NCBI GenBank assembly: GCA_042217365.1
Contig: JBDGST010000082.1
Coordinates: 1-33,472, forward strand
From: Haloarculaceae archaeon
Lineage (GTDB): Archaea; Halobacteriota; Halobacteria; Halobacteriales; Haloarculaceae
Length of the DNA stretch: 33,472 nucleotides
Direction of reading: 5' to 3'
Numbering within the stretch: the stretch's first letter is position 1; each line of letters begins with the position of its first letter. The notes beneath the pieces were generated by a model. That model was not told the DNA's origin. It ran no database searches and saw only the letters and a program-made list of their open reading frames with translations. Shown one piece after another: positions 11,958 to 32,056 of this stretch. The position numbers were made by a program, and so were the translations under genes.

Positions 11958-12011
11958 CGCGCGTTGTGCGCCGACGGGCTCCTTAACCCCGCCGGGCTCC
12001 TACGGGCGTGC

Positions 12012-17100: not shown

Positions 17101-17124
17101 CACTGCCGAGGTGTATTAGAGTCC

Positions 17125-17539: not shown

Positions 17540-18313
17540 TCAGGAGAGTTCGGCGTCGCAGGCCGGGCAGACCCGGACGCGCGCCGGTATCTCGGTCCCG
17601 CAGTACCTGCAGAACTTCGTGTCCCCGGCGTCCGGCTTCCGATCGCCTCGACACGCGGGGCACTCCTCGCCGGTGTAAGTCCGCTCGTGCTCCTCGCAGT
17701 ACTCCCTGGTGTCCGAGTCGCTCCCGGCGCCGTCCGCGGAGCCGTCGTCCGCCGTCGCGACTTTCGACCGGTTGACGACGCTGTCGTCGACGGTGACCTC
17801 GCGCCCGTCTTTGACCGCCGACCCCTTCCCGGCTCCGTCGCCGGTCGCGGACCCGATCTCCGAGCGGTTGACGACGCTGTCGCGGACCTCGGTCCGGTTT
17901 TCGACCTTGTTCCCGGCGACGTAATCGCCGCCGCGGACCTCGACGCGCGCGTCGCGCTGGACTTCGAGTTTCAGCGTCGTCTGGTACCCGATCTCGATCG
18001 TCGCGTCGCGGCGGACCCGCTCGACGTGTCCCTCCCCGATATCGGTCTCGTCCCGGTTCGTCCGGACGATGACCCCGTTGGTGTTGTTGCGGTTCCGGAC
18101 TTCGAGGCAGTCGTCCCGGGCGTTCAGGACGACCGGCGCCGTGCCGTTTTTCTTCCGGGACACGGTCGCGTCGGCCACGCCGAGCCGGTAGATCTCGTCC
18201 CCCTGTGCGGCCAGGACCTCCTGTGTATCTCCCGGGTCGCGGTAGACTTCGGTCTCCGACTCGACCGGCACTTCGGCTGACTCCGTCCCCACGACCGAAA
18301 GATAACCCCTCAT
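17540..18313 (-). CDS. Zinc-ribbon protein with beta-strand-rich repeat region and two DSVVNRS motifs (paralogue of 28396..29028)
   Basis: 257 aa with alternating-pattern repeats (TLKLEVQRDARVEVRGGDYVAGNKVENRTEV), RDSVVNRSEIG and DDSVVNRSKVA, then C-terminal YCEEHERTYTGEECPACRG and FCRYCGTEIPARVRVCPACDAEL (double zinc ribbon). Confidence 0.6.
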   Translation of the reverse strand: MRGYLSVVGTESAEVPVESETEVYRDPGDTQEVLAAQGDEIYRLGVADATVSRKKNGTAPVVLNARDDCLEVRNRNNTNGVIVRTNRDETDIGEGHVERVRRDATIEIGYQTTLKLEVQRDARVEVRGGDYVAGNKVENRTEVRDSVVNRSEIGSATGDGAGKGSAVKDGREVTVDDSVVNRSKVATADDGSADGAGSDSDTREYCEEHERTYTGEECPACRGDRKPDAGDTKFCRYCGTEIPARVRVCPACDAELS

Positions 18314-18463: not shown

Positions 18464-19222
18464 TCACCCCGACTCCGCCCGCTGGTACAGCCGTTTCGTC
18501 CGCTCGGCCAGCCGGTCGACCCGGTCGCGCCGCTCGGCGTCCAGTTCCCCGTCGGTCGGCACCACTTCGAGCTGCTCGACCAGCGCGTCGAGGTCCGCCC
18601 GCACGTCGGCGTACGCGTCGTCGTCGACCGGATGCTCCCGGACGTAGTCGCGCAGTTCGGCGGCGCGCCTGTGACAGGCCTCGGCGGACTCGCCGGCCGC
18701 AGTCTGGAGGTGCTCGGCCAGCGAGGCGGCCAGGTAGTCGTCCCCGTCGTCGCCCCCGTCGGCGGGAGCGGCTTCCTCGACGTCCGTGAGCCGGCGGCGC
18801 GCGCGCTCGCGGACCGCCTCTGGCGTCGCGTCGGTCGCCAGCTCCGACAGCGTCTCGCGGATCTCGGCGACGCGCTCGTCCGGTGCGTCCCTGGCGAACT
18901 CCCGGAGCCGGTCGATCGCGTCCAGCCGGTCGTCTTTGAACGTTCCGTCGCGCGCGAGCGCGGCGAACGCCGGGACGACCACGCCGGCGGCGCCGTCGGG
19001 GTCGGATTCGAAACACTCCCGGAGCTTCTCGCGTGCGAGGTCGCGCTCGGCCCGCCCGGTCGCGTCGAGCGCGACCTCCCGGAGCGCTTCGAGCGCCGCT
19101 CGCTTGCCCTCCGGCCCGGCGTCGGGGAACGCGCGGGCGAGCTCCTCGATCGCCTCCTCGCGGTCCCGCGAGTACGGCGAGTCCAGCGCCGTCTCGCGGT
19201 GGGTCCGTATCGCCTCGTTCAT
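18464..19222 (-). CDS. HEAT-like alpha-helical repeat protein (252 aa)
   Basis: Start ATG 19222 (MNEAIRTHRET). Repeated ~30-aa helical units (EEAIEELARAFPDAGPEGKRAALEALREVAL ..., RLDAIDRLREFARDAPDERVAEIRETLSEL ...). Start is 31 nt downstream of the SPFH gene stop. Confidence 0.55.
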   Translation of the reverse strand: MNEAIRTHRETALDSPYSRDREEAIEELARAFPDAGPEGKRAALEALREVALDATGRAERDLAREKLRECFESDPDGAAGVVVPAFAALARDGTFKDDRLDAIDRLREFARDAPDERVAEIRETLSELATDATPEAVRERARRRLTDVEEAAPADGGDDGDDYLAASLAEHLQTAAGESAEACHRRAAELRDYVREHPVDDDAYADVRADLDALVEQLEVVPTDGELDAERRDRVDRLAERTKRLYQRAESG

Positions 19223-19253
19223 CGTTCGGCCTCCTCGCGTCGTGTGTCTTCGG

Positions 19254-21095
19254 TCATAGTTCGGTCCCGCAGTCGGTACAGAACGCCTGGTCGGCCGGCA
19301 CGGCCGCGCCACACGACGGACAGGCCACGGAGCCGCCCGACCGGTCGGCCCCGCCGCCCTGGTCGCCGCTACCGCTCTCTTCGCCACCGCCGCTCCGGCC
19401 TCCGCTCTCGCCGCCACCGCCGCCCGGGCCGTCGCCGCCGCCCTGGACGATGGTCGTGTCCCCGGAGTCGCTCGACCCGCCCGCGTCGGGGACGATGACG
19501 TTGTCGGAGGTGTCCTCGGCGGCTGCCTCGGCCGTGTCGCCCATGTTGTCCATCGCGGACTCGCTGGTCTCCTGGACGCGGTCCATCGCGTCCTCCATGG
19601 TCTCGCGCAGTTCCTCGCGGAACTGTTCCTGGTCCTCGACGCGCTGGCGCTCGGTCTCGGCGTCGTGGGCCTCCTGGCGGGCTTTCGCGAGTTCGTCGCT
19701 CTCCTTGGCGCCCAGGGCTTCGAGCTGTTCCGGCGTGAGGTCCTCGGCCTTCTCGATCTCCGCGAGCTCCGCCACCGCCTCGTCGACGCTGTCCATGCTC
19801 GCCAGCGTGTCGAGGTCGACCTCGTCGCGGGCCTGGAGGCGCTCTCTCTCCACCTCGACCTCGTGTTCCTCGCGGCGCATCTCGATGTCCTGCTCGCGCT
19901 CCTCGACGTCCAGGCCGTCCATGTCCTTGCGCTTTTTCGCGTCCAGCAGGTCGTCTATCTCCGACATGTCCTGCTCGTGTTCTATCTCCCGGCGCTCGGC
20001 CTCGGCCTCCGTGCGCGTGGTCTTTTTCTCCTGGTCGTGCTCGACCTCCTCGCGCTCGGCCTCGTGGCGGTGGCGCCGCCGCATGTCGTCTTTCTCGTGG
20101 GACTGCTCGATCTCCTGGGTCTCCAGCTCGTGGTCGGCGCTCTGCCGGGCCGACCCCCGCCTGACCCGCTGGCGCTGGTCGTGGACCACCCGCTCGGTCT
20201 CGCGTTCGGTCTCGCGCTTGTCCAGCTCCAGCTCGTCGTCGGCGATGTCCTGCTTCTCACGCTCGATCTCGACCTCCTTGCGCCGCTCGCGGACCTCGTC
20301 GAGGTCGTCGCCGTACTCGAACGAGAGGAGGTCCACGAGCCGGAGCCCGTTGCGCTCCAGGGTCCGGCGCAGTTCGTGCTCGACGTCCTGCCGGAGGTCC
20401 CGTTTCAGCTCGCGGTTCCCGTAGAGGTCGTCGCGCTCGTAGCCGCTGATGGTCGCCTCTAACTCGTCGCGGATCGCGTCGCCCAGCGTCGCGGTCAGCG
20501 TCTCGGCGGTGACGGCGTCGCGGGTGCGCAGCATCTCCGTGAAGAACAGCTGCGGGTCGTCGACCTCGATCACGAGTTCGACCCCGACGCTGACGAGGTA
20601 GTCCGTCGCCGTCCGGACGTCGTCGACCTCGACCGTGACGGCGGTGGTCCCCTCGTTGACGAGAAAGACCGCGTAGTCCTGGCCCCGCCTGAAGTCCTTC
20701 AGCTTCCGGCCCAGCGAGTCGAGGGTGTGCTTGCCGGGGCCGAGTGTCCCCTTGATCTCGCCGTTCTCCAGCAGGAGCGCCCGGTTGCCCGCCTCGATCT
20801 TCACTTCCTCTTTCTGTCGCAGGCGCGCGAGGAACCCCCGAGCCTGCAGGTCGCTCCCGGTGGCGCGGCGGGCGAACTCGTACTCGCGCAGCTGCAACAC
20901 GTCGCTGTCGCCGGCCCGGGCGGCGTCCGGGTCCGCCCCGCCGGTCAGCTCCGCTCCGCACTCGGCGCAGTAGGCGGCGTCGGCCGGGTTGTCAGCGCCG
21001 CAACTCGGACAGCTCGCCGCCAGCGACGTCCCGCACTCCCCGCAGAACCGGGCGTCGGCCGGCGCCGTCGCGCCGCAGCTCGGACACTGCATCAC
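19254..21095 (-). CDS. Triple zinc-ribbon SPFH/band-7 (flotillin-like) protein with ~330-aa E/R/D-rich coiled coil
   Basis: N-terminal CPSCGATAPADARFCGECG plus CPSCGADNPADAAYCAECG (double zinc ribbon). SPFH-like core (VKIEAGNRALLLENGEIKGTLGPGKHTL ... VFLVNEGTTAVTVEVDDVRTATDYLVSVGVELVIEVDDPQLFF ... RELKRDLRQDVEHELRRTLERNGLRLVDLLSFEY). Long charged coiled coil, then a G/S-rich linker and C-terminal CPSCGAAVPADQAFCTDCG. Confidence 0.7.
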   Translation of the reverse strand: MMQCPSCGATAPADARFCGECGTSLAASCPSCGADNPADAAYCAECGAELTGGADPDAARAGDSDVLQLREYEFARRATGSDLQARGFLARLRQKEEVKIEAGNRALLLENGEIKGTLGPGKHTLDSLGRKLKDFRRGQDYAVFLVNEGTTAVTVEVDDVRTATDYLVSVGVELVIEVDDPQLFFTEMLRTRDAVTAETLTATLGDAIRDELEATISGYERDDLYGNRELKRDLRQDVEHELRRTLERNGLRLVDLLSFEYGDDLDEVRERRKEVEIEREKQDIADDELELDKRETERETERVVHDQRQRVRRGSARQSADHELETQEIEQSHEKDDMRRRHRHEAEREEVEHDQEKKTTRTEAEAERREIEHEQDMSEIDDLLDAKKRKDMDGLDVEEREQDIEMRREEHEVEVERERLQARDEVDLDTLASMDSVDEAVAELAEIEKAEDLTPEQLEALGAKESDELAKARQEAHDAETERQRVEDQEQFREELRETMEDAMDRVQETSESAMDNMGDTAEAAAEDTSDNVIVPDAGGSSDSGDTTIVQGGGDGPGGGGGESGGRSGGGEESGSGDQGGGADRSGGSVACPSCGAAVPADQAFCTDCGTEL

Positions 21096-21177
21096 CGATC
21101 ACCCCCGTCCGCGGCGGACGTGCGGTCCAGTCGGTCGTGTGCCGTTTCGACAGTGTCGTGTCGCTGTCCGAACATGG

Positions 21178-21447
21178 TTATCTGAGCCCCTGTAAGTAGT
21201 CCTGTCGCCCGGCGAACGAGCGTTCGAGCGCGGCGACGGCGTCCTCGCCCGCCTCGTAGAGCCGGTCGGACGCGTCGTCGAGCGCGCGCTTCGCGTCGTC
21301 GAGGTCTCGCTCCAGCTTCTCGCGGATCGCCCGGTCGGTCGCCGCCCGCGCCTCGTGGGTCCGGTAGTCGTACCCCGGGACGACCCGCTTGAGGAGCGCG
21401 CTGTTCGTCGACAGTTTCCCCTCGTCGACGTCGTCGAGTAGACTCAT
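21178..21447 (-). CDS. Small helical protein (89 aa), hypothetical
   Basis: High GC3. Lies between the AAA and SPFH genes on the same strand. TATA-like ACTATACT about 50 nt upstream. Confidence 0.45.
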   Translation of the reverse strand: MSLLDDVDEGKLSTNSALLKRVVPGYDYRTHEARAATDRAIREKLERDLDDAKRALDDASDRLYEAGEDAVAALERSFAGRQDYLQGLR

Positions 21448-21635
21448 GCGCCGTGACCTCCCGGACTCGGTCTGACCATTATCCGTGTTCCTGCAGTATA
21501 GTGTTTGGCGTCAGTTCGGCCCGCTGACGTGCTCGCCGAGGCCCGCCCCCCGTCAGTCGGCGGACCCTCGTCGGGCCGGCGGTGGCCGGGGGACGCGCCC
21601 GCGACTCGCCCGGTTCGGTCTCGTCCCGCCATCGG

Positions 21636-22802
21636 TCAGCCCTCCCAGTCGGCGAGGCTGGACTCGGTTTCCTCGATGGCCGCCTCGAGGTGGTCCTGCG
21701 TGATGCGTCGTATCTCGTCGGCCTCGCGGGCGTCCTGGAGGGCCTTGCGGGCCGCGTCCGTCGCGACCAGTTCCATGTCGCTGGCGGAGTACCCCTCGGT
21801 CCGGTCCTCGATGGTCTCCCAGTCTATCTCCTCGGTGAGGACCGGCCTGTCCCGGAGGTGGACCCGGAGGATGGCGCTGCGGGCTGCGGGGTCCGGCGGC
21901 GGCACCTCGATCCGCTCGTCGAACCGGCCCGACCGCTTGATGGCGTCGTCGACCGACTCGAGCAGGTTCGTCGCCGCGAACACGACCACGTCCTCGCCCT
22001 GGATGTCGCTCAACTCGGTCAGGATCTGGTTGACCATCTGGCGCTCGCTCTGGGTCTTCTGTGCGCCCCCGGAGCGCTGCCCGGCGATGGCGTCGACCTC
22101 GTCGACGAAGACGAGACACGGCTGGTTGTCCCGCGCGACCGCGAACAGGTCCGCGACGTTGTCCGCGGCCTCGCCGACCAGCGACGAAGTCAGGTCAGAC
22201 GGCGTCACCTCGACGAAGTTGTAGTCGAGCTTGCCCGCGAGCGCACGCGTGACGTACGTCTTGCCCGTTCCCGGCGGCCCGTAGAGGAGGACGCCGTTCA
22301 CGACGCCGAGGTCGTACTCCTCGTAGAGCTCCGGGCGTTCGAGCGGGTCGACGACCTTCTCGATGAGGGTCTGCTTGAGGTCGCTCATCCCGCCGACGTC
22401 GTCGAAGTCCAGGTCCGGCGGGTCCTCCAGGTACTCGCTCGCGTCGGCGACGTCCCCCTCGCCGTCCCCGTCCGCGTCGACCTCGTCGGGACTGTCCGCG
22501 TTCGACCCGCCTGTCGCGCCGGCGTCGGCGTTCGCGCTCGACCCGTCACGACCCGTTCCTCCCGACGCCCGTTCGGCGAGCGTCTCGGCTGCCTCCCGCA
22601 GGTTCGCCGCCAGGTCGCGTCGCTTCTTCGCGACGGCGTCCCGGGACTCCAGACCGGCTATCTCGTCGAGCAGTTCGGCGCACTTCCGGTAGTGCGTGGC
22701 GGCCTCGTCCGGTTCGTCGCGCTCGCGGGCCTTCTCGGCGCGCTCGCGGTGGCGCCGGTAGTCGTCTTTCAGGATCTCCCTGTGGGCGTCGTCTCCCAGC
22801 AT
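21636..22802 (-). CDS. MIT-domain AAA+ ATPase (Vps4/CdvC-like)
   Basis: N-terminal three-helix region (EAATHYRKCAELLDEIAG ...) resembling a MIT domain. Single AAA cassette with Walker A GPPGTGKT, Walker B CLVFVDEVD, second region of homology and arginine finger (SGRFDERIEV). Start is 22 nt downstream of the Snf7-like gene stop. Confidence 0.85.
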   Translation of the reverse strand: MLGDDAHREILKDDYRRHRERAEKARERDEPDEAATHYRKCAELLDEIAGLESRDAVAKKRRDLAANLREAAETLAERASGGTGRDGSSANADAGATGGSNADSPDEVDADGDGEGDVADASEYLEDPPDLDFDDVGGMSDLKQTLIEKVVDPLERPELYEEYDLGVVNGVLLYGPPGTGKTYVTRALAGKLDYNFVEVTPSDLTSSLVGEAADNVADLFAVARDNQPCLVFVDEVDAIAGQRSGGAQKTQSERQMVNQILTELSDIQGEDVVVFAATNLLESVDDAIKRSGRFDERIEVPPPDPAARSAILRVHLRDRPVLTEEIDWETIEDRTEGYSASDMELVATDAARKALQDAREADEIRRITQDHLEAAIEETESSLADWEG

Positions 22803-22824
22803 AGGTGAAAGACCGACCAGCCCG

Positions 22825-23487
22825 TCAGAGGTCGTCTATCGACACTTCTCCGGTGTCGATGTCGTCGTCGATGTCGATTCCCTCCTCGATGCTGACCTCC
22901 GATTCGGCCTCGATGTCGACCTCCTCGGCGGACATCTCGGAGGTGGCGATCTGCTCCATCACTTCCTCCTCTTCGCCGACTTCCATCTCCAGCTGGTCGT
23001 CCATGATCGGGACGTCCAGTGCGTCCTGGATCTCCTGCATGTCCTCCATTTCGATGCCGAACGACGCCATCCGCTCCATGATCTCGCTCTGGATCTCCTG
23101 GGCGTTGGCGTCACTCATCGCCTCGTCGATCGCGATGTCCTCGTCGTCGTGCAGGTCCATGATGTCCCGCATGCCCTGGATGCTGAGCACCGTGCCGAGC
23201 TTGACGTTGTTCGCCCGGTACTTCTTCTTCTTGATGGCGTATTTCTTCTTCTCGAACTTGGCCTTCTGCGCGTACTTCTTGCGCTGCAGCTCGCCCTCCT
23301 GGGCGCCCTCCTGGAGCAGTTTCCTGTACTTGCGCCGGTGTTTGTCCATCTCCTGCTCGAGCTTCTTCGAGCGGTGCTCCAGCTTCGAGATGTCCTTCCG
23401 GAGCTCCGTGTCGCTGTAAACGCTCTCTTCGAGCAGTGACTCGCCCGTACCGTTGAACCGTTCCTGAACCCAGTTGCGCAGTTCCAT
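22825..23487 (-). CDS. ESCRT-III / Snf7-like protein (PspA/Vipp1/ESCRT-III superfamily), 220 aa
   Basis: Basic N-terminal half (KKYAQKAKFEKKKYAIKKKKYRANNVKLGTVLSIQ) aligns by eye with CHMP4/Snf7 alpha1-alpha2 (KRAALQALKRKKRYEKQLAQIDGTLSTIEFQ). DIAIDEAMSDANAQEIQSEIMERMAS matches Snf7 alpha4-alpha5 (MDIDKVDELMQDIADQQELAEEISTAIS). Very acidic C-terminal tail ending ...EVSIDDL. High GC3 codons; the plus-strand overlapping ORF is S-rich junk. Confidence 0.7.
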   Translation of the reverse strand: MELRNWVQERFNGTGESLLEESVYSDTELRKDISKLEHRSKKLEQEMDKHRRKYRKLLQEGAQEGELQRKKYAQKAKFEKKKYAIKKKKYRANNVKLGTVLSIQGMRDIMDLHDDEDIAIDEAMSDANAQEIQSEIMERMASFGIEMEDMQEIQDALDVPIMDDQLEMEVGEEEEVMEQIATSEMSAEEVDIEAESEVSIEEGIDIDDDIDTGEVSIDDL

Positions 23488-23511
23488 GGTTGTATCGTTT
23501 GCCAGTCTGCT

Positions 23512-23521
23512 GTTATTATTG
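23512..23521 (-). promoter_or_regulatory. TATA-like box (minus-strand CAATAATAAC), ~28-30 nt upstream of ATG 23487
   Basis: Only AT-rich stretch in the 100-bp intergenic region; leaderless spacing. Confidence 0.4.
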
Positions 23522-23586
23522 TTTGGACCGTCCGTCGCCCGGCTGGCCGTCGACCGCCCGCCGTTTCCCGGCCGGTCTGTGACCCG

Positions 23587-23871
23587 CTACTCGATCTCCG
23601 GTTTCGCTATCGATAGCGTCCCGACGATCCCCAGCGCCGCGCCGACGCCGGCGACCACGATCAGGAGACGCTTGTCCTCGAAGGCCAGGTCGAACAGCCG
23701 GGCCCCGAGGGTCGCCTCCGCGTAGACGACCGCCGCGCCGATCACCAGCCCGCCGACCGACCCGTAGACCACCCGCTGCTCCATCAGGCTGTACACCCCG
23801 ACGACCAGACCGACGCCCAGCACGACGTTCGCCAGTAACGCGAGCGCCATCGCCCAGAGTTCGAGAGGCAT
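23587..23871 (-). CDS. Small membrane protein (94 aa, 3 TM)
   Basis: LWAMALALLANVVLGVGLVVGVY, GGLVIGAAVVYAEATLG, LLIVVAGVGAALGIVGTL. Stop is 100 nt upstream of the Snf7-like gene. Confidence 0.5.
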   Translation of the reverse strand: MPLELWAMALALLANVVLGVGLVVGVYSLMEQRVVYGSVGGLVIGAAVVYAEATLGARLFDLAFEDKRLLIVVAGVGAALGIVGTLSIAKPEIE

Positions 23872-24193
23872 CTTTTGCCATCACACCGTCTGACAGATCC
23901 ATTCGTTTATAGATACATAAAGATTTGGGTCCATTAGAGGTTTGAGGGAGTCTCCAAAATGGAGGTTATCGAGAGTGGAACGAACGAAAAGTGGCGAGAA
24001 CCGTAGAGACGGGCTCGGCCGCGCAGCCGACGACTCGACGGGTTCACGCCTCTTTCGAGCGCCGGTCGGAGCCCGGGCGACCACGGCTTCGACACCCCCG
24101 AAGCCGTCGACAGCCTCGATCAGCCGCGAGAGGTACTCCGGTCGAAACTCGACGGCTGACCCCCCTATCCGCGCCGACCGGACGGCAGGGAGA

Positions 24194-24349
24194 TCACTCT
24201 TCGTAGAACAGGAAGACGAGGATCTGACTCTCCCACTGGGTGACTTCGACGTCCCGTACGTCGTAGTGTTCGTGGAAGCTGTCCAGTTGCGACTGGATCT
24301 CTTCGACGTTGTTCGTCTGGTAGTCGAATTCGAGGATTTGCGTCTGCAT
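24194..24349 (-). CDS. Small conserved-looking ORF (51 aa), not in ORF track as a separate gene
   Basis: MQTQILEFDYQTNNVEEIQSQLDSFHEHYDVRDVEVTQWESQILVFLFYEE. Almost every codon is G/C-ending, i.e. genome-typical usage despite a low-GC amino-acid composition. It is the 3' tail of the artefactual 623-aa minus-strand ORF. Confidence 0.4.
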   Translation of the reverse strand: MQTQILEFDYQTNNVEEIQSQLDSFHEHYDVRDVEVTQWESQILVFLFYEE

Positions 24350-24547
24350 AGACCGACGTCGGACGGCCGCTCCTTTGCCTTTGTGGCGCCGGGGCGCCGG
24401 GAAGTAGCCATCGCCCGGTGGCGGCTGATAGCGCGCTCGCCGACTCCCGTGGCGAAGACGGTGACGGAGTACGTTCGGGTTGACCGCGATTCCACCGATA
24501 GTAGTTGCGGGAAAAATACTTTCACAGATGGCTGATATTGGGGCTCC

Positions 24548-26098
24548 ATGGCGAAGAGGGCGCCAGGATTCATCGACGGCGGAGAAGCCGTCACGGACGA
24601 ACAGGCGCGGACCGAGATACTCGCGGGCGCGTTCGAAGAGGCGGCGGGCGGGTACTTCGAGCGTCAGGTCGAGTACGAGCAGGCGATCGCCGACGCGCGG
24701 GAGGACAGAGACGACGCCAAGCGCGCGGGGATCGCAGGCGTGATCGCGGGTCTGGTCCTCGTGGTCGCCGGGCCGCTGATGGACGTCCTGCCGGTGTCGC
24801 TGCTCGGGCTCGTCGTCGCGGCGGTCGTCGGCTATCTCAAGTACCGCGAACACGAGGCGGCGGTCGAGCGCATCGAGGACAACCGGCGTGCGCTCAGGGA
24901 GGACAGACCGGACGGGCAGGTGTCGTTCGTGTCGCAGGTCGCCGTCCCTGCGTATCTCGTCCAGTACAGCGACCGGCACATGGTCTTCGACGGGCTGAAC
25001 CAGGCGCCGCGGACCGACCTGGAACTCGCGCTGGTCGACGGCGACGCGCTCCACGGGGCGCGCGCGGACCTCGAAGAGGTCGCGGACGTCCTCGACGAGT
25101 ATCTGTCGGGCCAAGAGGTCCTCGACCCGGCGTTCGCACAGGAGGTCTGCCCGGGGATCACCGACCACCGGCGCCTCGAAAAGCCGGTCACCGACCGGAT
25201 GGACCGGATGACGGCGATCGCCCGGGACGTTGACGTCGAGTCGATATCGGTCAACGTCCACGCGAACGACGGGATCGCCCGCAGCGTTCGGACGCTCAGC
25301 CGCGACGGGCTCCTGCGAGGGGACGGCGACCTGCCGGTCGTCGAGACCGAACAGTCGATGGCCGAGTGCGAGCAACTCGTCACAGATATCAGGGGCGTCG
25401 AGCAGCAGGCGGTCAGCGGCGACATGCTCGACCAGGCGCGGGACCACCGCGACGCGGTCGTAGAGGTCGCCGACGAGTTCGCCGAACCGCTGGGCACGAA
25501 CGCGGAGACCGTGGCGGAGCACTTCGACGCCCACGCCGGCGCAGTCGAGGACAGCACCGCCAAGTTCGTCTGCGAGGAGTGCCTCGCCGAGGAACTCGCG
25601 GCGGTCGACGACGAACTCGACCTGGTGGCGGAGATCCTCAGCGAGGAGACGGGGAGTTTCGGCGTCGCGCTGAGCGACCCCGACCTCGACGAGATCACGG
25701 TCGACGGCGAGGGGTCGTTCACCGACCAGGTCAGGGCCGACATCGAGGAGCACATCCCGGTACTCGAAGACGAACTCCGCGAGGCGTACAACACGCTCGG
25801 TGACATGGGTCCCGACGGCGACTACTGCATGAAACACGAGAGCGTCGAGACGGTCCCGGTCGCCCGCGACGGTCACCTGTTCGGCGAGGTGTGGCGGAGC
25901 CTCTACTACGAGTTTCGGGGACCGATCATGGACAGCGTCGAGGACCTCGAACGCGAATCCGAGGAAGTCAGACAGAACAAGGAACAGAAGATGATCGACC
26001 TCGCCCAGTACGAACAGATCAAGGACTCGGCCGAGCGGGATTTCCACGCCGTCAAGGCCGACCACGACGCCGCCGAAACCATCGAACGGAGGCTGTGA
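24548..26098 (+). CDS. Membrane-anchored hypothetical protein (516 aa, TM hairpin near N-terminus, large acidic cytoplasmic domain)
   Basis: GIAGVIAGLVLVVAGPLMDVLPVSLLGLVVAAVVGYL forms two TM helices. The remainder is acidic with no recognisable motif. TGA overlaps the next ATG (26096-26100). Confidence 0.6.
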   Translation: MAKRAPGFIDGGEAVTDEQARTEILAGAFEEAAGGYFERQVEYEQAIADAREDRDDAKRAGIAGVIAGLVLVVAGPLMDVLPVSLLGLVVAAVVGYLKYREHEAAVERIEDNRRALREDRPDGQVSFVSQVAVPAYLVQYSDRHMVFDGLNQAPRTDLELALVDGDALHGARADLEEVADVLDEYLSGQEVLDPAFAQEVCPGITDHRRLEKPVTDRMDRMTAIARDVDVESISVNVHANDGIARSVRTLSRDGLLRGDGDLPVVETEQSMAECEQLVTDIRGVEQQAVSGDMLDQARDHRDAVVEVADEFAEPLGTNAETVAEHFDAHAGAVEDSTAKFVCEECLAEELAAVDDELDLVAEILSEETGSFGVALSDPDLDEITVDGEGSFTDQVRADIEEHIPVLEDELREAYNTLGDMGPDGDYCMKHESVETVPVARDGHLFGEVWRSLYYEFRGPIMDSVEDLERESEEVRQNKEQKMIDLAQYEQIKDSAERDFHAVKADHDAAETIERRL

Positions 26099-27141
26099 TG
26101 TCGGGGAACCAGAACGTCAGGGTCTCGGTCGACGAGCGGAAGATCGGCAAAGCCGCCGGATCGGCCGTCTCGGGCGAACTGAAAGGCGAACTCAGCTCGA
26201 TCAAGAGCAACACGAGCGAGACGGCCGACCAGGTCCGCGAGATGAAACGAGAAGTGAGCGCCCTCCAGCGGCGCGTCGAGAGCCTCGAGGAGCGGATGAC
26301 CGAGATCGAGCGGACCAAGGCCGAGGCCCAGCGGGAGGCCACCGAATCCATCAAGGACGAACTCGAACGGCAGCTGGAGGAGAAAAAGCGGCAGTTCGAG
26401 GAGAAAAAGCGGGACGTCCTCGGCGACTACCAGTCGAGCATCCGGCGGCTGAAAGACCGGTTCGTCAACTCGATCCCCGGGCAGAGCGAGGGGTTCGAGC
26501 GGGTGACCGAGGAGTTCGATCGAGCGGTCGAACTCCGGGACTCGGTCGTCGAGGAGGCACGGCGGCTCGGGAGCCACGGCGCGGCGGCCGTCCACGAGTA
26601 CCGCCGCAGACACGTCGAGGAGTCCCGGACGGCCTTTACCGACGCCATCGACGACTTCCTCGCCGACCGCCGGGAGACCGCGAACACGATCGACTCGCTC
26701 CAGACGGCGGTGCCCGGCGTCGACGGCAACGAGCGAGTGCACGTCCCGTTCTGGGTGGTCGGGATCGAGCGCGACGGCAGGGAAGAGGTCTACGTGTTGC
26801 CGATCCAGACGCGGGCGGAACCCGAAGCCGCGCCGACCGCCCGGGCGCCGTACGCGTCGTACCTCAAGCCCCACGACACCCACTACTACGGCGACTGGAC
26901 GGACGCGGTCGAGGCGTACGTCCGCCAGGACCACGTGCGCGACAGGCTCGCCGCCGACGACCCGACGTTCGCCGACCCCGACGTCCTCCGGGACCTCCCC
27001 GGCGTCCACGACAGGTTCGTGGACGCGCTCACGGAGTTCGAGTTCGGGGACCGGCGAACGACCGGGTCGACGACCCGACGGGCTGGGCAAGCACAGCGGC
27101 AGCGGCAAGCCGCTCGAACAGGGGCACAGAACGATGACTGA
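26098..27141 (+). CDS. Coiled-coil protein (347 aa)
   Basis: N-terminal heptad-rich region (VSALQRRVESLEERMTEIERTKAEAQREATESIKDELERQLEEKKRQFEEKKRD) followed by a globular domain. 8-nt overlap with the next gene. Confidence 0.6.
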   Translation: MSGNQNVRVSVDERKIGKAAGSAVSGELKGELSSIKSNTSETADQVREMKREVSALQRRVESLEERMTEIERTKAEAQREATESIKDELERQLEEKKRQFEEKKRDVLGDYQSSIRRLKDRFVNSIPGQSEGFERVTEEFDRAVELRDSVVEEARRLGSHGAAAVHEYRRRHVEESRTAFTDAIDDFLADRRETANTIDSLQTAVPGVDGNERVHVPFWVVGIERDGREEVYVLPIQTRAEPEAAPTARAPYASYLKPHDTHYYGDWTDAVEAYVRQDHVRDRLAADDPTFADPDVLRDLPGVHDRFVDALTEFEFGDRRTTGSTTRRAGQAQRQRQAARTGAQNDD

Positions 27142-28399
27142 GGAAGTACTGGGCGCCATCACGTCCGACAAGGTCGAGACCGACAACACGAACTTCGCGA
27201 CGCTGAAGGCCGACCAGACCTGCGAGGAGGCGCTGATCCCCCGGGACAACGCGGTCAGACAGCTCAACTGGCAGGTCACCCTTGAGAAAGGGTCCATCTA
27301 CAACCCCCAGGAGGACGTCGGCGTCTACGCCCAGGAGGTCGACTGCAAGTACGGGGTGCAGGTCGACGGCACGGTCTTCGGACGCGACGCCGTCTCCGTC
27401 GAACACGGGGGCGCGATGCACTCGGCCGCGAGCGACGAGGGCGAGGCGGCGCCGGTCATCGGGGCCCGGGTCCTCGGCTCGGTCGTCTCCGACGGGTCCG
27501 TCGAGGTGGTCTCGCCGGACTCGAAACTCGACGACTGGGAGCCCAGGCCGGTCACCGTCTACGGCGACCTCGTCGGCGGCCACGTCTCCATCGAGGAACC
27601 GACCGTCGTCTACGGGAACGTCCTCGCCGAGCAGATGCTCTGGGTCGACGCGCCGACGGTCGTGTTCGGCGACGTCCGCTCGGAGGGATCCCTCGAGGCG
27701 ACCGACCTGTTCGCGTTCTCGATAACCGCCCGCGACGAGGTCACCCTCGGCGAGCGCGTCGTCACGGTCAACCCCGTGGTCCGGTCCGACGAGGGGACGA
27801 TAACCCTCGTCGACGACGTCGCGGTCTTCGACTCGGCCACGCTCGCCCGCGTCGGGGACGCCCACGACGTCGACAGCGTCGCGGTCGGCCCGTGGGTGCT
27901 GGACGAGGAGACCGTCTGGGAGGGCGACCGGCTGGTCCCCGCCGACGTCATCGACCACGGTGACGGAGAACTCGCAACCCGGGCGTGGCGGACGGTGTCG
28001 GAACCCGATAGCGAGTACGCGTACGTCCAGTCGCTGCTACAGCGCCACGTCGCCGAGTTCCGGCGCGATCCCCCCGACATCGAGCAGTTCCGGTACGGCG
28101 GCCTCGTCAGCGTGGGCGAGAGCAGCCCCGACGACGACGGCGGCGTCACCGTCGAACACCACGGCGAGGGCGACGTCGTGCTTGGCGACCAGGAGAAGGA
28201 GGTGGAGGAAGAGGACCTGACGACCATCGACAACAGCGTGACGGACGTCACCGAGACGAAGACCGTCCACGACGAGCGCACGACCATCGAGGACAGCGTC
28301 CTCAACCGGTCCGACGTCGGGGGGGTCGGCGACGCGGACGGGAGCGACGGCGAAGCGGCCGACGGGACCCAGATGCCGGCGGAACCGCGGGAGGAGTGA
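27134..28399 (+). CDS. Bactofilin-like (polymer-forming beta-helix) protein with C-terminal DSVLNRS module (421 aa)
   Basis: Repeated windings of the form VTVYGDLVGGHVSIEEPTVVYGNVLAEQMLWVDAPTVVFGDVRSEGSLEA match the bactofilin/DUF583 pattern x-V-x-G-D/N-V-x-A. C-terminal block GDVVLGDQEKEVEE ... DERTTIEDSVLNRSDVG is shared with the next gene. Confidence 0.6.
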   Translation: MTEEVLGAITSDKVETDNTNFATLKADQTCEEALIPRDNAVRQLNWQVTLEKGSIYNPQEDVGVYAQEVDCKYGVQVDGTVFGRDAVSVEHGGAMHSAASDEGEAAPVIGARVLGSVVSDGSVEVVSPDSKLDDWEPRPVTVYGDLVGGHVSIEEPTVVYGNVLAEQMLWVDAPTVVFGDVRSEGSLEATDLFAFSITARDEVTLGERVVTVNPVVRSDEGTITLVDDVAVFDSATLARVGDAHDVDSVAVGPWVLDEETVWEGDRLVPADVIDHGDGELATRAWRTVSEPDSEYAYVQSLLQRHVAEFRRDPPDIEQFRYGGLVSVGESSPDDDGGVTVEHHGEGDVVLGDQEKEVEEEDLTTIDNSVTDVTETKTVHDERTTIEDSVLNRSDVGGVGDADGSDGEAADGTQMPAEPREE

Positions 28400-29028
28400 C
28401 CGTGGGCTACTGCGAAGACCACGACCGCGTGTATCGCGGCGCCGAGTGCCCCGACTGCGCCGGTTCGGCCGCGGGAAGCGACGCCGGACGGACCGCGGAC
28501 CCGGCGACGGGGCGGAACACCGGGGCCGGCGCGGACGGGGACGACCCCCGGTCGAGTGACGCCCGGGACGCGTCCAGGGACCCCGCGAACGTCCGCGAGC
28601 ATGTCGAGGACGGCGTCGCGGACGCGCTCGGGGACGTCGACGTCGACGTCGAAGACGGGGACGTGGTCGTCGGCGACCAGGAGAAGACCGCCGAGAAGAC
28701 CGTCCGGACCGAGATCGACGACAGCACCGCCGACGTCACCGAGGAGACGACGACCCGCGACGAGCGGACCACCGTCGAGGACAGCGTCCTCAACCGCTCG
28801 ACGGTCGAGGGCGACGCCGACGTCGAGGACAGCGTCCTCAACCGGTCGGACGTCGGAGACGGGGCCGGCGCCGAGGACTCCGCAGTCGAGCGGTCGAGCG
28901 TAGGCGGTGAGTCGGGCGGAGGAGGGGCAGAAACCGGAAGCCACGAAACGGAGTTCTGTATCTACTGCGGGGCGGAAGTCCCCGCCGGGAGCGAAACCTG
29001 CCCCCAGTGCGGGGAGTCCCTGTCGTAG
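28396..29028 (+). CDS. Zinc-ribbon protein with tandem DSVLNRS repeats (210 aa), paralogue of 17540..18313
   Basis: GTG start overlapping the previous stop (GTGA). N-terminal YCEDHDRVYRGAECPDCAG (compare YCEEHERTYTGEECPACRG in the 17540 gene). GDVVVGDQEK ... DERTTVEDSVLNRSTVEGDADVEDSVLNRSDVGDGAGAEDSAVERSSVGG. C-terminal FCIYCGAEVPAGSETCPQCG. Confidence 0.6.
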   Translation: MTVGYCEDHDRVYRGAECPDCAGSAAGSDAGRTADPATGRNTGAGADGDDPRSSDARDASRDPANVREHVEDGVADALGDVDVDVEDGDVVVGDQEKTAEKTVRTEIDDSTADVTEETTTRDERTTVEDSVLNRSTVEGDADVEDSVLNRSDVGDGAGAEDSAVERSSVGGESGGGGAETGSHETEFCIYCGAEVPAGSETCPQCGESLS

Positions 29029-29294: not shown

Positions 29295-31289
29295 TCAGGT
29301 GCCACACTGCAGCGACAGCCCGAGTTCGTCGAGGTAGAGCTGTTCGCCGGCTCCCTCGGCTTCGAGGTCGTTGAACGCCCGCTTGACGACGTGTGGCTCG
29401 TAGCCGTGCTCAACGACGTCCTCCAGCAGGACCGACTCGTGGGCGACGTCCTCGACGTACTCGCGCCGGATCGTCTCGACGCAGTCGCTCACTCGCTCCG
29501 CCTCGATCGGCGGCGCGAACAGGTCGGCGTTCTCGCTGGCGACCGGATCCGTCTCGTCGTACGCGACTGACCCGTCCTGGAGGTCGACCAGGCAGACGCT
29601 CAGGTACTGGCTGTACCGCGAGCGGGCGAGGTCCTCGGTCGTGACCTGGTCGCGCACGCGCTCGCTCCACCCGGTGGGCGACGCCAGGGCCAGCAGGTAG
29701 CCGTACTCCCCGTCCTCGGCCTCGGCGACGGCCTCGTTGACGACCGACAGCAGGTCGTCCAGGTCCGCCGGGGTGGCGTCGAAGCCGTTGGTCGCGAACG
29801 CCTCCAGGTCCGCGAGTACGCGGGCCTCGACGACCATCTCCGTGTCGCTGCCCAGACCGAGGTACCGCGAGGTCGTCACCTCGTAGCGCGCGGCCCCGTT
29901 GGTCGGGTAGCCGTCCGGGTCCCCGCCGTCGAGCAGCGACGCCACGCGCGGGCGCTCGCTCCGCCGGCTGCTCCGCCCCTCCCAGTAGCCGTCGGGCACT
30001 TCGAACGTCCCCTGGCGGGTCCGTAGCGAGTCGACCTCGGCCATCGAGATGTCGAACCGCCCGAGGTAGTCCATCTCCAGCACCTTCCCCATCGTCGCGG
30101 TGACGACGTTCTCGCCCTCGATCCCGGCGTCCTCTCCCGCGGGGACTGATTGCTCGACGTCGGCGACTCGCTCCTCGAGGGCCCGCTGTCGCTCGTCGAG
30201 CGTCTCGCGGGCCGTCTCGATCCGCTCGCGCTCGCGTTCGAGGCGCTCGACCTCCTCGCGGATCTCCTCGCGCTGGTCGCGCAGCGCCTCGATCTCGTCC
30301 TCGACGAGTTCCGTCGCCTCCTCGCGGGCCCGGCGGTCGGCCTCCTCGCGGGCGGTTTCTTTGACTGCTTCGAGGTCCTCGATCTTGACCCGCAGCCGCT
30401 GTTCCATGTCGGTCGTGCGCTCGATTCGCGCGCCGAGGTCGTCGAGGACGTCGCCCTCGTCGGCGCCCTCGCGGCGACGCTCGACCGCGTCGAGTTCCGC
30501 CCGGAGCTGCTCGGGGTCGGCCTCCCGACTCGCGAGTTCGCCCTCGAGCGAACTGAGCTTCGTCTCCAGCTCTCGCTGCTGGCGCTCGAACCGCTCGTCG
30601 ATCGTCGCCGAGAGGTCGTCGAGTTCCTCCCGGAGCTCGGCGCGGACCCGCTCGCGCTCGTCGGCGGCCTCGTTGACGGCCGTGACCGCCTCCTCGATGG
30701 CCTCGACCATGTGTTCGAGCCCGTGGGTCTCGACGTAGGTGAAAAAGCCCCGCCGGATCTTCTCGCGGCGGTCCTCGTACCGGTCGAGCAGGCGCTCGAT
30801 CACGTCCTGCTGGACCTCCGGGTTCTCGATTAGCTCGTCGACGTTGGCTATCTGGGTCGAGGTGTACTCCTCGACGAGTTCGTACACCTCGCCCTCCATG
30901 CGGCGGATCTTCGCCTCGATCTGGTCCTCGGAGAGCGCGTCGAACTGCTTGTACCGGTCGAAGTCGACGACCGCCTGCAGCTCGGCCTCGATGAAGTCGT
31001 CGGCCATCGCCCGGGGCACCGACGCCCCGTCCTCGGCGTAGAAACTGGCCGCGAGCAGGAGGCGCGCCAGGCGGAACGTCCCGCGAACGCGGTCGCGCTC
31101 GGCGCCGGTCAGGAAGTCCGGGCAGTCCTCGCTGAACTCCCAGACGAACTCCTCCTCGCTGGCCTTGATCTCGTTGTACCGCTCGACGCGGGTGCGCTCG
31201 GGCATCCGTTCGAGCGCGGCCAGGTCCTCGTCGATCACCGTCTCGGCCGCGTGTGTCAGTTCCTCGAACCGCTGTGCGCAGTCGCTCAT
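29295..31289 (-). CDS. Large coiled-coil protein (664 aa) with N- and C-terminal globular domains of unknown function
   Basis: Central ~300 aa of E/R-rich heptads (ELREELDDLSATIDERFERQQRELETKLSSLEGELASREAD ... EEVERLERERERIETARETLDERQRALEERVADVEQ). C-terminal domain contains GSDTEMVVEARV ... GYLLALASPTGWS, which could be a PD-(D/E)xK-like core (speculative). Confidence 0.6.
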   Translation of the reverse strand: MSDCAQRFEELTHAAETVIDEDLAALERMPERTRVERYNEIKASEEEFVWEFSEDCPDFLTGAERDRVRGTFRLARLLLAASFYAEDGASVPRAMADDFIEAELQAVVDFDRYKQFDALSEDQIEAKIRRMEGEVYELVEEYTSTQIANVDELIENPEVQQDVIERLLDRYEDRREKIRRGFFTYVETHGLEHMVEAIEEAVTAVNEAADERERVRAELREELDDLSATIDERFERQQRELETKLSSLEGELASREADPEQLRAELDAVERRREGADEGDVLDDLGARIERTTDMEQRLRVKIEDLEAVKETAREEADRRAREEATELVEDEIEALRDQREEIREEVERLERERERIETARETLDERQRALEERVADVEQSVPAGEDAGIEGENVVTATMGKVLEMDYLGRFDISMAEVDSLRTRQGTFEVPDGYWEGRSSRRSERPRVASLLDGGDPDGYPTNGAARYEVTTSRYLGLGSDTEMVVEARVLADLEAFATNGFDATPADLDDLLSVVNEAVAEAEDGEYGYLLALASPTGWSERVRDQVTTEDLARSRYSQYLSVCLVDLQDGSVAYDETDPVASENADLFAPPIEAERVSDCVETIRREYVEDVAHESVLLEDVVEHGYEPHVVKRAFNDLEAEGAGEQLYLDELGLSLQCGT

Positions 31290-31338: not shown

Positions 31339-31881
31339 TCATTGTTGGCTATTCGCGTAGTCCGCCAGTTCGGTCTCGAAGAAGTCCGCGAGGAACGACG
31401 GCGCGGGCGGGTAGCCGTCCACCCGGACCGTCACCGTCGTCGTTCCCCCGTCCCCGTCCCCGTCGACCCCGTAGGTGACGGTCGCTCGGCCCTTCTTCGT
31501 GTAGACCTCGTACTCGTTTCGCGCCGCCGACTGCAACACCGCCTTCTTCTTCGAGAGCATGTACTCGACGAACGACTCGACGGCGTCCGCCTGCGCGTCG
31601 ACCGATTGCTCGACCGTGTAGCGTTCGGTCGTGACGTCCGGTTCGACCGGTTCGAGCCGGTACGAGGCGACCTGGTCGGCGGGCACCTTGCCGACGAGGT
31701 CCTCGTAGAGCTCGTCGTGGTCGACGCCGTCGGCGACCCGGACCAGGCCCGACGGCTTCTCCACGTCGCCGTCGTCCCAGTTGTTGAACAGGTACTCGAC
31801 CCGCTTTCGCTCGGCGTCGTCCTCGTAGTCGACGACGAACAGGTACCGGTCGTCCCCGTCTGTCTGGTCGTTCCGTGTCAT
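31339..31881 (-). CDS. Hypothetical protein (180 aa) with Cas2/VapD-like N-terminal strand pattern
   Basis: Start ATG 31881 (MTRNDQTDGDDRYLFVVDYEDDAERKRVEYLFNNW ...), which by eye resembles the Cas2 beta1-alpha1 signature (LVLVFYDISDERRRARLSELL). The 50-nt gap to the 664-aa gene on the same strand suggests an operon. Confidence 0.45.
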   Translation of the reverse strand: MTRNDQTDGDDRYLFVVDYEDDAERKRVEYLFNNWDDGDVEKPSGLVRVADGVDHDELYEDLVGKVPADQVASYRLEPVEPDVTTERYTVEQSVDAQADAVESFVEYMLSKKKAVLQSAARNEYEVYTKKGRATVTYGVDGDGDGGTTTVTVRVDGYPPAPSFLADFFETELADYANSQQ

Positions 31882-32056
31882 GGTTCGTGGGTGCATCCGG
31901 CGTCCCCCCGCACCGCGTCACGGGTCTGTCGAACGCTGTCCGTTCGGATTGTGTGCAGCGACGAAAAAAAGTCTTTTCCATAATGGAGACTTCAGGGAGA
32001 CACCATTCGGTACGGTCCATGGAGAAACGCGACTGGAGAGTAAAGTCGAGTCCGGT

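Follow-up and report, generated by a model that had tools for sequence, protein, structure and literature searches.

The window analysed here covers positions 1 to 33,472 of contig JBDGST010000082.1 (GenBank assembly GCA_042217365.1), a stretch of 33,472 nucleotides (nt) with a GC content of about 0.70 from the metagenome-assembled genome (MAG) of a Haloarculaceae archaeon. Six open reading frames (ORFs) on its minus strand, between positions 18464 and 23871, encode proteins of 94, 220, 388, 89, 613 and 252 residues and are separated, in this order, by 99, 22, 188, 82 and 31 nt. A preceding sequence-only reading had described these six genes, with gaps of 22–190 nt, as coding for a small protein with three transmembrane segments, a Snf7-like protein, an MIT-AAA ATPase, a helical protein, an SPFH/band-7 protein and a HEAT-like protein; all six ORFs are present at the positions it gave and the spacing was borne out (22–188 nt). 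The cluster is interpreted here, with a probability of about 0.6, as the central part of a haloarchaeal ESCRT-like membrane-remodelling system that belongs to the Halo_FHA clade and represents an SPFH-carrying subtype. The module in the window is larger than the cluster and comprises about 14 genes, among them one for a bactofilin-like protein and conserved genes that the sequence-only reading had not listed.

The Halo_FHA clade was defined by Makarova et al. (2024, mBio; PMC10936438) for Vps4-containing systems of Halobacteriales with the FHA protein arCOG13166 as their signature; some of these loci also contain arCOG09748, arCOG08177, Ser/Thr kinases and phosphatases, the kinases and phosphatase being optional (PMC10936438). 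The representative neighbourhood is that of Natronolimnobius baerhuensis (Figure S5 of PMC10936438; locus MWPH01000006.1), in which genes for proteins of 226 residues, 400 residues (AAA), 592 residues (DZR and Band_7), 264 residues and 271 residues (zinc ribbon) are followed by a PP2C gene and two kinase genes, with genes for proteins of 182 and 666 residues located upstream in divergent orientation. Exact-sequence look-up of the N. baerhuensis proteins mapped the 226-residue protein to WP_087715648 (ESCRT-III/Snf7 family, arCOG07402, Table S1), the 400-residue protein to WP_087715647 (Vps4, arCOG01307, included in the list for the paper's Vps4 tree), the SPFH protein to WP_087715646 (arCOG15283, "ESCRT system component", Table S1), the 271-residue protein to WP_087715645 (FHA fused to a CdvA-like domain, arCOG13166), the 182-residue protein to WP_087715649 (arCOG08177) and the 666-residue protein to WP_054862121 (arCOG09748), while the 264-residue protein, WP_054862127, does not occur in the available part of the paper's tables.

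Orthologs of all these proteins are encoded in the window, at 38–70% identity: 69% for the ESCRT-III-like protein (WP_087715648 being homolog P0051), 68% for Vps4, 57% for SPFH, 50% for the HEAT-like protein, 38% for FHA, 70% for arCOG08177 and 51% for arCOG09748. Furthermore, the five core genes follow each other in the same order at both loci. What characterises a Halo_FHA locus was thus found in the window, namely a Vps4 gene with an ESCRT-III gene next to it (22 nt apart), an FHA gene, and the genes for arCOG09748 and arCOG08177. The two loci differ in that the latter two genes lie directly upstream of the ESCRT-III gene in N. baerhuensis, but beyond a divergently transcribed operon in the window; in that the window adds this four-gene operon (div516, div347, div421 and div210), a 51-residue ORF, the 94-residue protein TM94 (undetected in locus L001) and the 89-residue ORF; and in that the PP2C and kinase genes found after the FHA gene in N. 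baerhuensis have no counterpart in the window. The sequence-only reading had regarded the combination of these components as new for haloarchaea, a claim that fails because the Halo_FHA clade, with the orthologous N. baerhuensis locus and its SPFH component (Table S1), has already been published (PMC10936438). The link between SPFH and ESCRT-III/Vps4 in a haloarchaeon is therefore already catalogued, even if SPFH is discussed in the text of that paper for the Meth_adaptin clade only, and the added value of the present locus is its extended composition and a domain rearrangement.

The Vps4/CdvC-like ATPase of 388 residues (21636..22802, minus strand) consists of an MIT-like N-terminus, an acidic linker and one AAA cassette, matched in Pfam by AAA (E = 1.9e-37) and AAA_lid_3. 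Its identity to WP_087715647 extends over the full length and assigns it, at the level of sequence, to the Vps4 family of the Halo_FHA clade. Walker A and B, sensor 1 and the Arg fingers are intact, and these motifs are invariant in 15 orthologs. The AAA half of the earlier MIT-AAA label thus stood, whereas Pfam MIT was not matched; a profile built from 12 N-termini did match the CdvC MIT structures 2V6Y (E = 0.003) and 2W2U (E = 0.008) as well as CdvC 4LCB (E = 0.086), at the N-terminal positions of these structures, the other matches being TPR repeats, which gives moderate support to a predicted MIT domain. The NCBIfam CdvC model NF041006 was the sole model spanning residues 10–382 (156 bits, the cut-off being 650 bits). 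Neither a protease domain nor a transmembrane segment was found in the ATPase, and its predicted architecture is of the CdvC/Vps4 type. Pore loop 1 reads SSLVGE and is invariant in the window protein and 14 orthologs (residues 207–211, SLVGE, at 22170–22184, minus strand). The aromatic residue missing from this loop is kept in Vps4, Cdc48 and katanin, and in the Vps4 of H. mukohataei the loop reads S-K-Y-F-G-E.

For the ESCRT-III-like protein of 220 residues (22825..23487, minus strand; on record as ABEJ40_05760; arCOG07402 by orthology) a model computed with AlphaFold2 (pLDDT 67) predicts an N-terminal helix with the invariant residues Trp6 and Phe11, a long helical hairpin (residues 26–62 and 66–112) bearing the basic patch KAKFEKKKY.IKKKK, which is invariant, and then two short helices and an acidic tail that is disordered. 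The helix order of this model resembles that of ESCRT-III, and 14 of its 50 top Foldseek matches were chains of the ESCRT-III superfamily, none of them significant. The family comprises 82 clusters at 50% identity, as retrieved with HMMER from 1.84 billion representatives.

Conservation of the neighbourhood was followed in related loci collected with different anchors: 15 distinct loci were anchored on the 220-residue protein (L001 and 14 from a genome scan, L003 repeating L002), three on div421 (L020 holding the sequences of L012) and nine on the SPFH core. The genome scan found its 14 loci among 185,579 species representatives and, as it needs exact peptide patterns, under-counts. Every window protein was compared with the related loci by tblastn, presence being called at the matrix threshold. 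The genes for the 220-residue protein and the ATPase are adjacent in 22 of the 22 related loci with DNA covering both (a count that draws on the 15 loci anchored on the 220-residue protein, on L018 and L020 from the div421 anchor and on L021–L026 from the SPFH core). The genes for SPFH and the 252-residue protein occur together wherever the DNA covers both, and neither occurs alone (window, L001, L002, L005, L006, L012/L020, L018, L021–L024, L027 and L028). Anchoring on the SPFH core yielded nine orthologs, eight of which are flanked by other genes of the system, and of the loci anchored on the 220-residue protein only about one in two has SPFH. The arCOG09748 gene was detected in 13 of the 15 distinct loci of that anchor, the exceptions being L004 and, judged at the matrix threshold, L015. 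Genes for kinases or PP2C are found in the neighbourhood of most related loci. The synteny, which holds across several haloarchaeal genera and in both anchoring directions, is far above chance. The apparent truncation of the AAA gene and the missing downstream genes of L004 (J07HX64 scaffold KE356579.1) are explained by a masked run of N inside the AAA gene, and gene loss was rejected for this locus.

The 613-residue protein (19254..21095, minus strand; arCOG15283 by orthology) was confirmed as a member of the SPFH family by a profile check, in which Band_7 (PF01145) matched residues 99–281 with 35.9 bits against a cut-off of 23.6 bits. Pfam likewise recovered the zinc ribbons that had been read from the sequence, a double one at residues 4–47 (DZR) and a third at residues 590–613 (Zn_Ribbon_1), and the identity to WP_087715646 extends over the full length. 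The Band_7 domain is followed by a putative charged helix (residues 282–530; 23% Glu, 12% Asp and 12% Arg, 51% charged residues in total) that is poor in Pro and Gly and leads into a Gly-rich linker; the E/R-rich coil of the sequence-only reading is therefore real as a charged stretch, but its length is about 250 and not about 330 residues, and its likeness to flotillin EA repeats is compositional only. A Kyte–Doolittle scan found no transmembrane segment in the protein, the N-terminus of which is the double zinc ribbon, whereas stomatin, HflK/C and flotillin are anchored in the membrane by an N-terminal transmembrane segment or hairpin. When the SPFH N-terminus was used in a word-indexed homolog search, most of the proteins retrieved were unrelated ones with zinc ribbons and only two were true orthologs; a metagenome scan with the SPFH core was used instead.

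The HEAT-like/CdvA-like adaptor of 252 residues (18464..19222, minus strand) is predicted to consist of duplicated helical repeats and a C-terminal helical domain. Residues 4–80 align with residues 82–158 in hhalign (probability 98.3%, E = 2e-14). Residues 4–158 (18749–19213, minus strand) are accordingly made up of two tandem copies of a unit about 78 residues long. The label HEAT-like is thus supported in respect of a helical repeat with internal duplication; Pfam HEAT gave no match above threshold, and the protein is 50% identical to WP_054862127, named "HEAT repeat domain-containing" in UniRef. Two orthologs showed sub-threshold matches to Adaptin_N (E = 0.03–0.05). As adaptins are a theme in other ESCRT systems of archaea, this similarity is of note. 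A GTG at 19417 was rejected as the start codon, since the orthologs (MNE/MQE...) begin at the position of the ATG at 19222.

The FHA-like protein of 257 residues (17540..18313, minus strand; arCOG13166 by orthology) carries two DSVVNRS motifs, a CxxH...CPxC element and a C-terminal zinc ribbon. Its N-terminus matched the arCOG13166 protein of H. mukohataei with E = 3e-9, and the only PDB matches of the family profile were two FHA domains, both weak (3GQS, E = 0.21; 1MZK, E = 1.3), in an alignment that covers the V-S-R and N-G motifs; Ser52, Arg53 and Asn79 are conserved in the family. Pfam FHA was not matched, and the support for a candidate FHA domain in this protein is moderate. In Halonotius-type loci a single protein combines the FHA domain with a C-terminal helical domain. 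The C-terminus of the 252-residue protein (about residues 162–252) aligns with the C-terminus of these one-piece FHA proteins and is, by this alignment, the equivalent of the CdvA-like domain of arCOG13166; a PDB search with a profile of the domain gave no meaningful match. Both in the window and in N. baerhuensis the CdvA-like domain is located on the HEAT-like protein, while FHA is fused to the DSVVNRS motifs and the zinc ribbon. The comparison of sequences points to a relocation of the CdvA-like domain onto the HEAT-like protein, and the split, also that of the N. baerhuensis locus, is not discussed in the available part of the text of PMC10936438.

The remaining two proteins shared with the published system are encoded 6–8 kb upstream of the cluster, beyond the div operon. 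The arCOG09748 ortholog (664 residues; 29295..31289, minus strand), described as an "ESCRT system protein with C-terminal winged helix" (PMC10936438), is 35% identical over its full length to H. mukohataei WP_012807456 (E = 2e-114). The arCOG08177 ortholog (185 residues; 31339..31896, minus strand) belongs to a family described as "ESCRT system protein, inactivated Cas2 + TBD domains" (PMC10936438) and shares 41% identity with H. mukohataei HMUK_RS15890 (E = 1.5e-40).

The four genes of the div operon are located on the plus strand. The first, div516 (516 residues; 24548..26098), encodes a protein with a transmembrane hairpin (about residues 57–99) predicted by hydropathy and a large cytoplasmic domain; its orthologs in nine loci are 48–66% identical, and in L006, L012/L020, L018 and L028 they are encoded directly downstream of SPFH. 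The second, div347 (347 residues; 26098..27141), combines a coiled coil at the N-terminus with a globular part at the C-terminus, gave weak matches of coiled-coil type only, and is always found between div516 and div421. The product of div421 (421 residues; 27134..28399) has a beta-helix core (about residues 60–230) that was confidently modelled and that resembles bactofilins, followed by a disordered acidic tail with one DSVLNRS motif. Among its 38 homologs all those with a named source are haloarchaeal, and some sources name the relatives "polymer-forming cytoskeletal protein" or "DUF342". The last gene, div210 (210 residues; 28396..29028), encodes an acidic protein with an N-terminal CxxH...CPxC element, three motifs of the DSV[VL]NRS type and a C-terminal zinc ribbon (Pfam Zn_Ribbon_1, 28.3 bits), and has orthologs in L002, L006, L012/L020, L018, L019, L024 and L028.

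The genes div516, div347, div421 and div210 occur with the SPFH gene, the HEAT-like gene or both in eight of nine related loci, in at least three gene orders. In the ninth, L019, an FHA/zinc-ribbon gene lies nearby and neither SPFH nor HEAT was found within the fetched stretch. The commonest order, SPFH-div516-div347-div421-div210-HEAT, was seen in L012, L018, L020 and L028, followed by FHA in L012 and L020. Carriers of the div genes together with SPFH and HEAT are Halosimplex, Salarchaeum, Salinarchaeum and Haloplanus as well as several contigs from metagenomes. A further conserved element is the 51-residue ORF s51 (MQTQILEFDYQTNNVEEIQSQLDSFHEHYDVRDVEVTQWESQILVFLFYEE, beginning MQTQILEFDYQ; 24197..24349, minus strand), which is hidden at the end of a spurious antisense ORF of 623 residues, has no family assignment and was detected by tblastn in nine distinct related loci with E values from 1e-7 to 1e-27. 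It lies just upstream of div516 in divergent orientation in eight of the nine loci with div516; in L019 it is on the strand opposite to div210, about 1 kb downstream, and in L029 the contig ends about 40 nt past it.

A short motif connects the operon with the FHA-like protein. Six copies of the pattern [DE]DSV[VL]NRSx[VI]G are present in the window, where chance would give about 0.02, and the pattern recurs in the orthologs: two copies are in the FHA protein (17861–17884 and 17765–17788, minus strand), one in the disordered tail of div421 (28289–28312, plus strand) and three in div210 (28777–28800, 28825–28848 and 28873–28896, plus strand). All copies sit in acidic disordered regions, and DSV[VL]NRS may be a common docking motif. 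The FHA protein and div210 also have in common the element C-x2-H-x-R-x-Y-x5-C-P-x-C (residues 189–208 of the FHA protein, EYCEEHERTYTGEECPACRG, at approximately 17690–17749, minus strand; residues 15–34 of div210, GYCEDHDRVYRGAECPDCAG, at approximately 28438–28497, plus strand), which the FHA protein of N. baerhuensis likewise carries at its C-terminus.

Two small genes of the cluster differ in their distribution. TM94 (94 residues; 23587..23871, minus strand) has the three hydrophobic segments that the sequence-only reading had claimed, as seen in a hydropathy scan, and is encoded directly upstream of the ESCRT-III-like gene; its orthologs are present in 10 distinct loci, including the simple-type L007. 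On plasmid pHmuk01 of H. mukohataei (L017, 56–83 kb) genes of the Halo_FHA type are spread over about 25 kb and include three ESCRT-III paralogs; ahead of one of these a small membrane protein is encoded, which recalls the pairing of TM94 with ESCRT-III in the window. The helical ORF h89 (89 residues; 21178..21447, minus strand) has homologs in close relatives only (L002, L005 and L021–L023; 55–60% identity over about 60 residues). The orthologs extracted from L002 and L005 are about 175 residues long, the window ORF corresponding to their N-terminal part (the counterpart in L002 lies at 11913–12440), and the carriers are Halosimplex and another MAG. By tblastn h89 is absent from L001, from all distant loci and from L024, despite an otherwise identical arrangement of the latter. 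It is lineage-specific and probably accessory, and is either a decaying gene or an accessory confined to this lineage. The six genes are therefore not the natural unit that had been assumed: h89 is lineage-specific, and the FHA, arCOG09748 and arCOG08177 genes, the four-gene operon and the 51-residue ORF also belong to the conserved neighbourhood.

TATA-like boxes point to more than one operon. AT-rich boxes of this kind lie 25–40 nt 5' of the starts of TM94 (a strong one), the ESCRT-III-like gene, h89 and div516, and weakly before the FHA gene, with a background of AT-rich hexamers of 0.9 per 100 nt; the scan found none before the genes for AAA, the HEAT-like protein, div347, div421 and div210. 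Because of these positions several transcription units are suggested, which we infer to be TM94; ESCRT-III-like and AAA; h89, SPFH and HEAT; FHA; div516 to div210; and arCOG08177 with arCOG09748. A scan for sigma-70 promoters and terminators gave nothing, its model not being applicable to archaea, and the AT-rich boxes were used in its place. The divergent intergenic region 23872–24547, which is probably regulatory for both sides, has the lowest GC content of the locus (about 0.60) and dense AT-rich boxes 5' of TM94 and div516. At the other end of the cluster, 17116–17460 (plus strand) encodes a small protein with weak similarity to the C-terminal winged helix of Cdc6 (E = 0.0016); the gene is convergent with the adjoining FHA gene and is not conserved at other loci.

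Several results weigh against an ESCRT-like system of the Halo_FHA type. Pfam Snf7 matched neither the 220-residue protein nor 51 members of its family, which gave coiled-coil noise only, and ESCRT-III chains were absent from the PDB searches made with the family by phmmer and by profile. In hhalign the family profile reached a probability of 0.3% with Snf7 and of 0.8% with PspA, against 10% with a tropomyosin control, a comparison that is uninformative. The Snf7-like label was thus left unconfirmed by any sequence or profile test run and, because all these tests were negative, ESCRT-III membership of the protein rests on the predicted architecture, the context and the published arCOG assignment. 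The AAA core scores better with the models of PAN (207 bits), FtsH (203 bits) and CDC48 (192 bits) than with that of CdvC (156 bits), the best PDB matches of the ATPase are to Cdc48 D2, and its pore loop 1 is without the aromatic residue typical of Vps4 (K-W/Y-x-G-E). Furthermore, the matches in favour of MIT (E = 0.003) and FHA (E = 0.2) are modest, and the window contains no kinase or phosphatase. No paper besides PMC10936438 was found to mention the Halo_FHA clade in the literature searched, a 2025 review does not discuss haloarchaeal systems, and no experimental work was found for any member of the clade, so that every functional step proposed for it is an analogy.

The alternative that survives best, unlikely as it is, would make the module an accessory of cell division or cell shape, with a bactofilin-like polymer, SPFH and ESCRT-III/Vps4 acting where the cell divides or at its poles, for instance late in abscission together with FtsZ/SepF, under the control of cell-cycle kinases. 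Bactofilins are cell-shape and division scaffolds in bacteria, and the fold predicted for div421 would suit such a role, as would the kinases and PP2C beside related loci. In Sulfolobales, and probably also in Thermoplasmata, it is ESCRT-III and Vps4 that drive cell division (PMC10936438, PMC7619361). However, the distribution is patchy, with 82 clusters of the 220-residue family among the 1.84 billion representatives and 14 loci, an under-count, among the species representatives, which makes a core division function unlikely in organisms that all keep FtsZ; moreover, one copy is located on plasmid pHmuk01.

Ranking behind it, and doubtful as well, is membrane-protein quality control, in which an SPFH cage would house or regulate the AAA protein as HflK/C does FtsH, the ATPase would be a Cdc48/PAN-like unfoldase, and the 220-residue protein would be a substrate adaptor or regulator and not a polymer; it is equally doubtful that membrane-associated substrates are selected through FHA and phosphorylation, as this explanation further supposes. 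The scores of the AAA core with the PAN, FtsH and CDC48 models and its PDB matches to Cdc48 D2 agree with it, as does the lack of sequence evidence tying the 220-residue protein to ESCRT-III, and HflK/C-FtsH of bacteria is an established partnership of SPFH and AAA proteins (Ma et al. 2022, as cited in PMC10936438). The likeness lies in an SPFH scaffold coupled to an AAA protein of the classic clade, with which the core of the window ATPase shares its 203 bits; the differences are that this ATPase has neither protease domain nor transmembrane anchor and that the SPFH protein has no transmembrane segment. The N-terminus of the ATPase matches the MIT domain of CdvC and not the N-domains of Cdc48 or the coiled coils of PAN, and the model of the 220-residue protein shows an ESCRT-III-like helix order and a predicted N-terminal amphipathic helix. 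The ATPase gene is paired with that of the 220-residue protein in every locus covering both (22 of 22), whereas SPFH is absent from about half of the loci and so cannot be an obligatory partner of the ATPase.

Highly improbable is an accessory stress or defence island, spread by horizontal transfer and acting through anti-viral budding or an abortive membrane response with an ATPase related to the IetA-type anti-phage enzyme: the AAA protein does reach 132 bits with PADLOC IetA and 133 bits with NCBIfam IteA, the system is patchily distributed and one copy, that of H. mukohataei, is plasmid-borne, and the divergent promoter region has a lower GC content (0.60), but the IetA score is below those of the generic PAN, FtsH, CDC48 and CdvC models, no IetS-like partner was found, no other window protein matches PADLOC beyond coiled-coil noise, PHROGs gives generic AAA matches only, and the ORFs scanned include no integrase, tRNA or repeat boundary. 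A known defence system was rejected on the PADLOC result (a generic AAA match without partner) and a virus or provirus on the PHROGs result.

Among the known systems close to an SPFH-carrying Halo_FHA module is the Meth_adaptin ESCRT of Methanosarcinales-type methanogens (Methanosalsum zhilinae WP_013898576), in which a coiled-coil/zinc-ribbon SPFH protein (arCOG15283) is encoded beside ESCRT-III and Vps4 (PMC10936438); as described, however, those loci are set apart by adaptin-appendage, GOLD and ProX proteins and have no FHA, arCOG09748, arCOG08177 or div genes. In the YdjG-YdjH-YdjI-PspA module of Bacillus subtilis an SPFH protein is likewise genetically linked to a protein of the ESCRT-III superfamily, and YdjI is required to bring PspA to the membrane (Scholz et al. 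2021, as cited in PMC10936438), which serves as the working model for SPFH here; that module differs in having neither a Vps4-like ATPase nor an FHA/kinase layer, and PspA is recognisable by sequence while the 220-residue protein is not. The Cdv system of Sulfolobales (CdvA, CdvB and CdvC) shares with the window the side-by-side genes for ESCRT-III and an MIT-AAA protein as well as a recruiting element of the CdvA type. It differs in that it drives cytokinesis in archaea without FtsZ, in that CdvB has a C-terminal winged helix binding CdvA whereas the winged helix of the window is on the separate arCOG09748 protein, and in that the CdvC model gives the window ATPase only part of the bits required (156 of 650).

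On the reading of the locus as an ESCRT-like membrane-remodelling system, a mechanism can be proposed by analogy. With its N-terminal Trp/Phe helix and the basic patch of its hairpin the 220-residue protein would bind the membrane, and there it would polymerise into an ESCRT-III-like filament. The MIT-like domain of the AAA ATPase would dock on the acidic C-terminal tail of this filament, and the hexamer would remodel or disassemble the polymer with ATP; HflK/C is reported to form a cage and the MIT domain of Vps4 to bind ESCRT-III tails (as cited in PMC10936438 and PMC7619361). The SPFH protein, having no transmembrane segment, may form a cup or cage on the membrane with its charged helix, mark a membrane patch and recruit the ESCRT-III-like protein to it, as YdjI does for PspA, and the cage may be anchored by div516, a predicted membrane hairpin protein whose gene comes directly after that of SPFH in five related loci. 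The 252-residue adaptor would connect to the ESCRT-III/Vps4 core by its CdvA-like domain and bind partners by its helical repeats, and the FHA/zinc-ribbon protein would read phosphothreonine marks. The DSV[VL]NRS motifs of div421, div210 and the FHA protein would probably dock onto one common partner. The output would most likely be regulated budding, protein sorting or local membrane repair and not cytokinesis, because haloarchaea divide with FtsZ.

A more far-reaching possibility, which is put forward tentatively and is less likely than not, is that the window represents an undescribed SPFH-bearing Halo_FHA supermodule of about 13 genes, in which a beta-helix polymer and an SPFH cage would be coupled to ESCRT-III/Vps4 under phospho-control, with the DSV[VL]NRS motifs docking on one receptor. 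Its usual order would be SPFH, the 51-residue ORF on the opposite strand, div516, div347, div421, div210 and HEAT/CdvA-like, then FHA/zinc ribbon where seen, and the groups TM94-ESCRT-III-Vps4 and arCOG08177-arCOG09748 would usually lie alongside. The receptor could be the winged helix of arCOG09748, in analogy to the CdvA peptide that binds the winged helix of CdvB. The div operon with its bactofilin-like protein, the 51-residue ORF, the shared linear motif and the non-aromatic pore loop appear not to have been described before. No paper linking bactofilin and ESCRT-III in haloarchaea was found in the literature searched, and the terms bactofilin, polymer-forming and DUF342 do not occur in the text and supplements of PMC10936438, of which Table S2 was available in part, so that an unmarked listing there is possible.

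Experiments on ESCRT-like systems of archaea have so far been confined to the TACK and Asgard groups. For the study of such systems in archaea that divide with FtsZ, the locus and its relatives provide a compact and conserved parts list, consisting of an ESCRT-III-like protein, a Vps4-like ATPase, an SPFH protein, a bactofilin-like protein and control by FHA and kinases, and the existence of cultivable carriers (Halosimplex marinum, Haloplanus pelagicus, Salarchaeum sp. and N. baerhuensis) makes the function of the system directly testable. Makarova et al. (2024; PMC10936438) have raised the idea that the partnership of SPFH and ESCRT-III is ancient, and the locus is relevant to this idea as well. 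If the proposed supermodule is real, haloarchaea dividing with FtsZ would own a dedicated, scaffolded machine for budding or for forming a membrane compartment.

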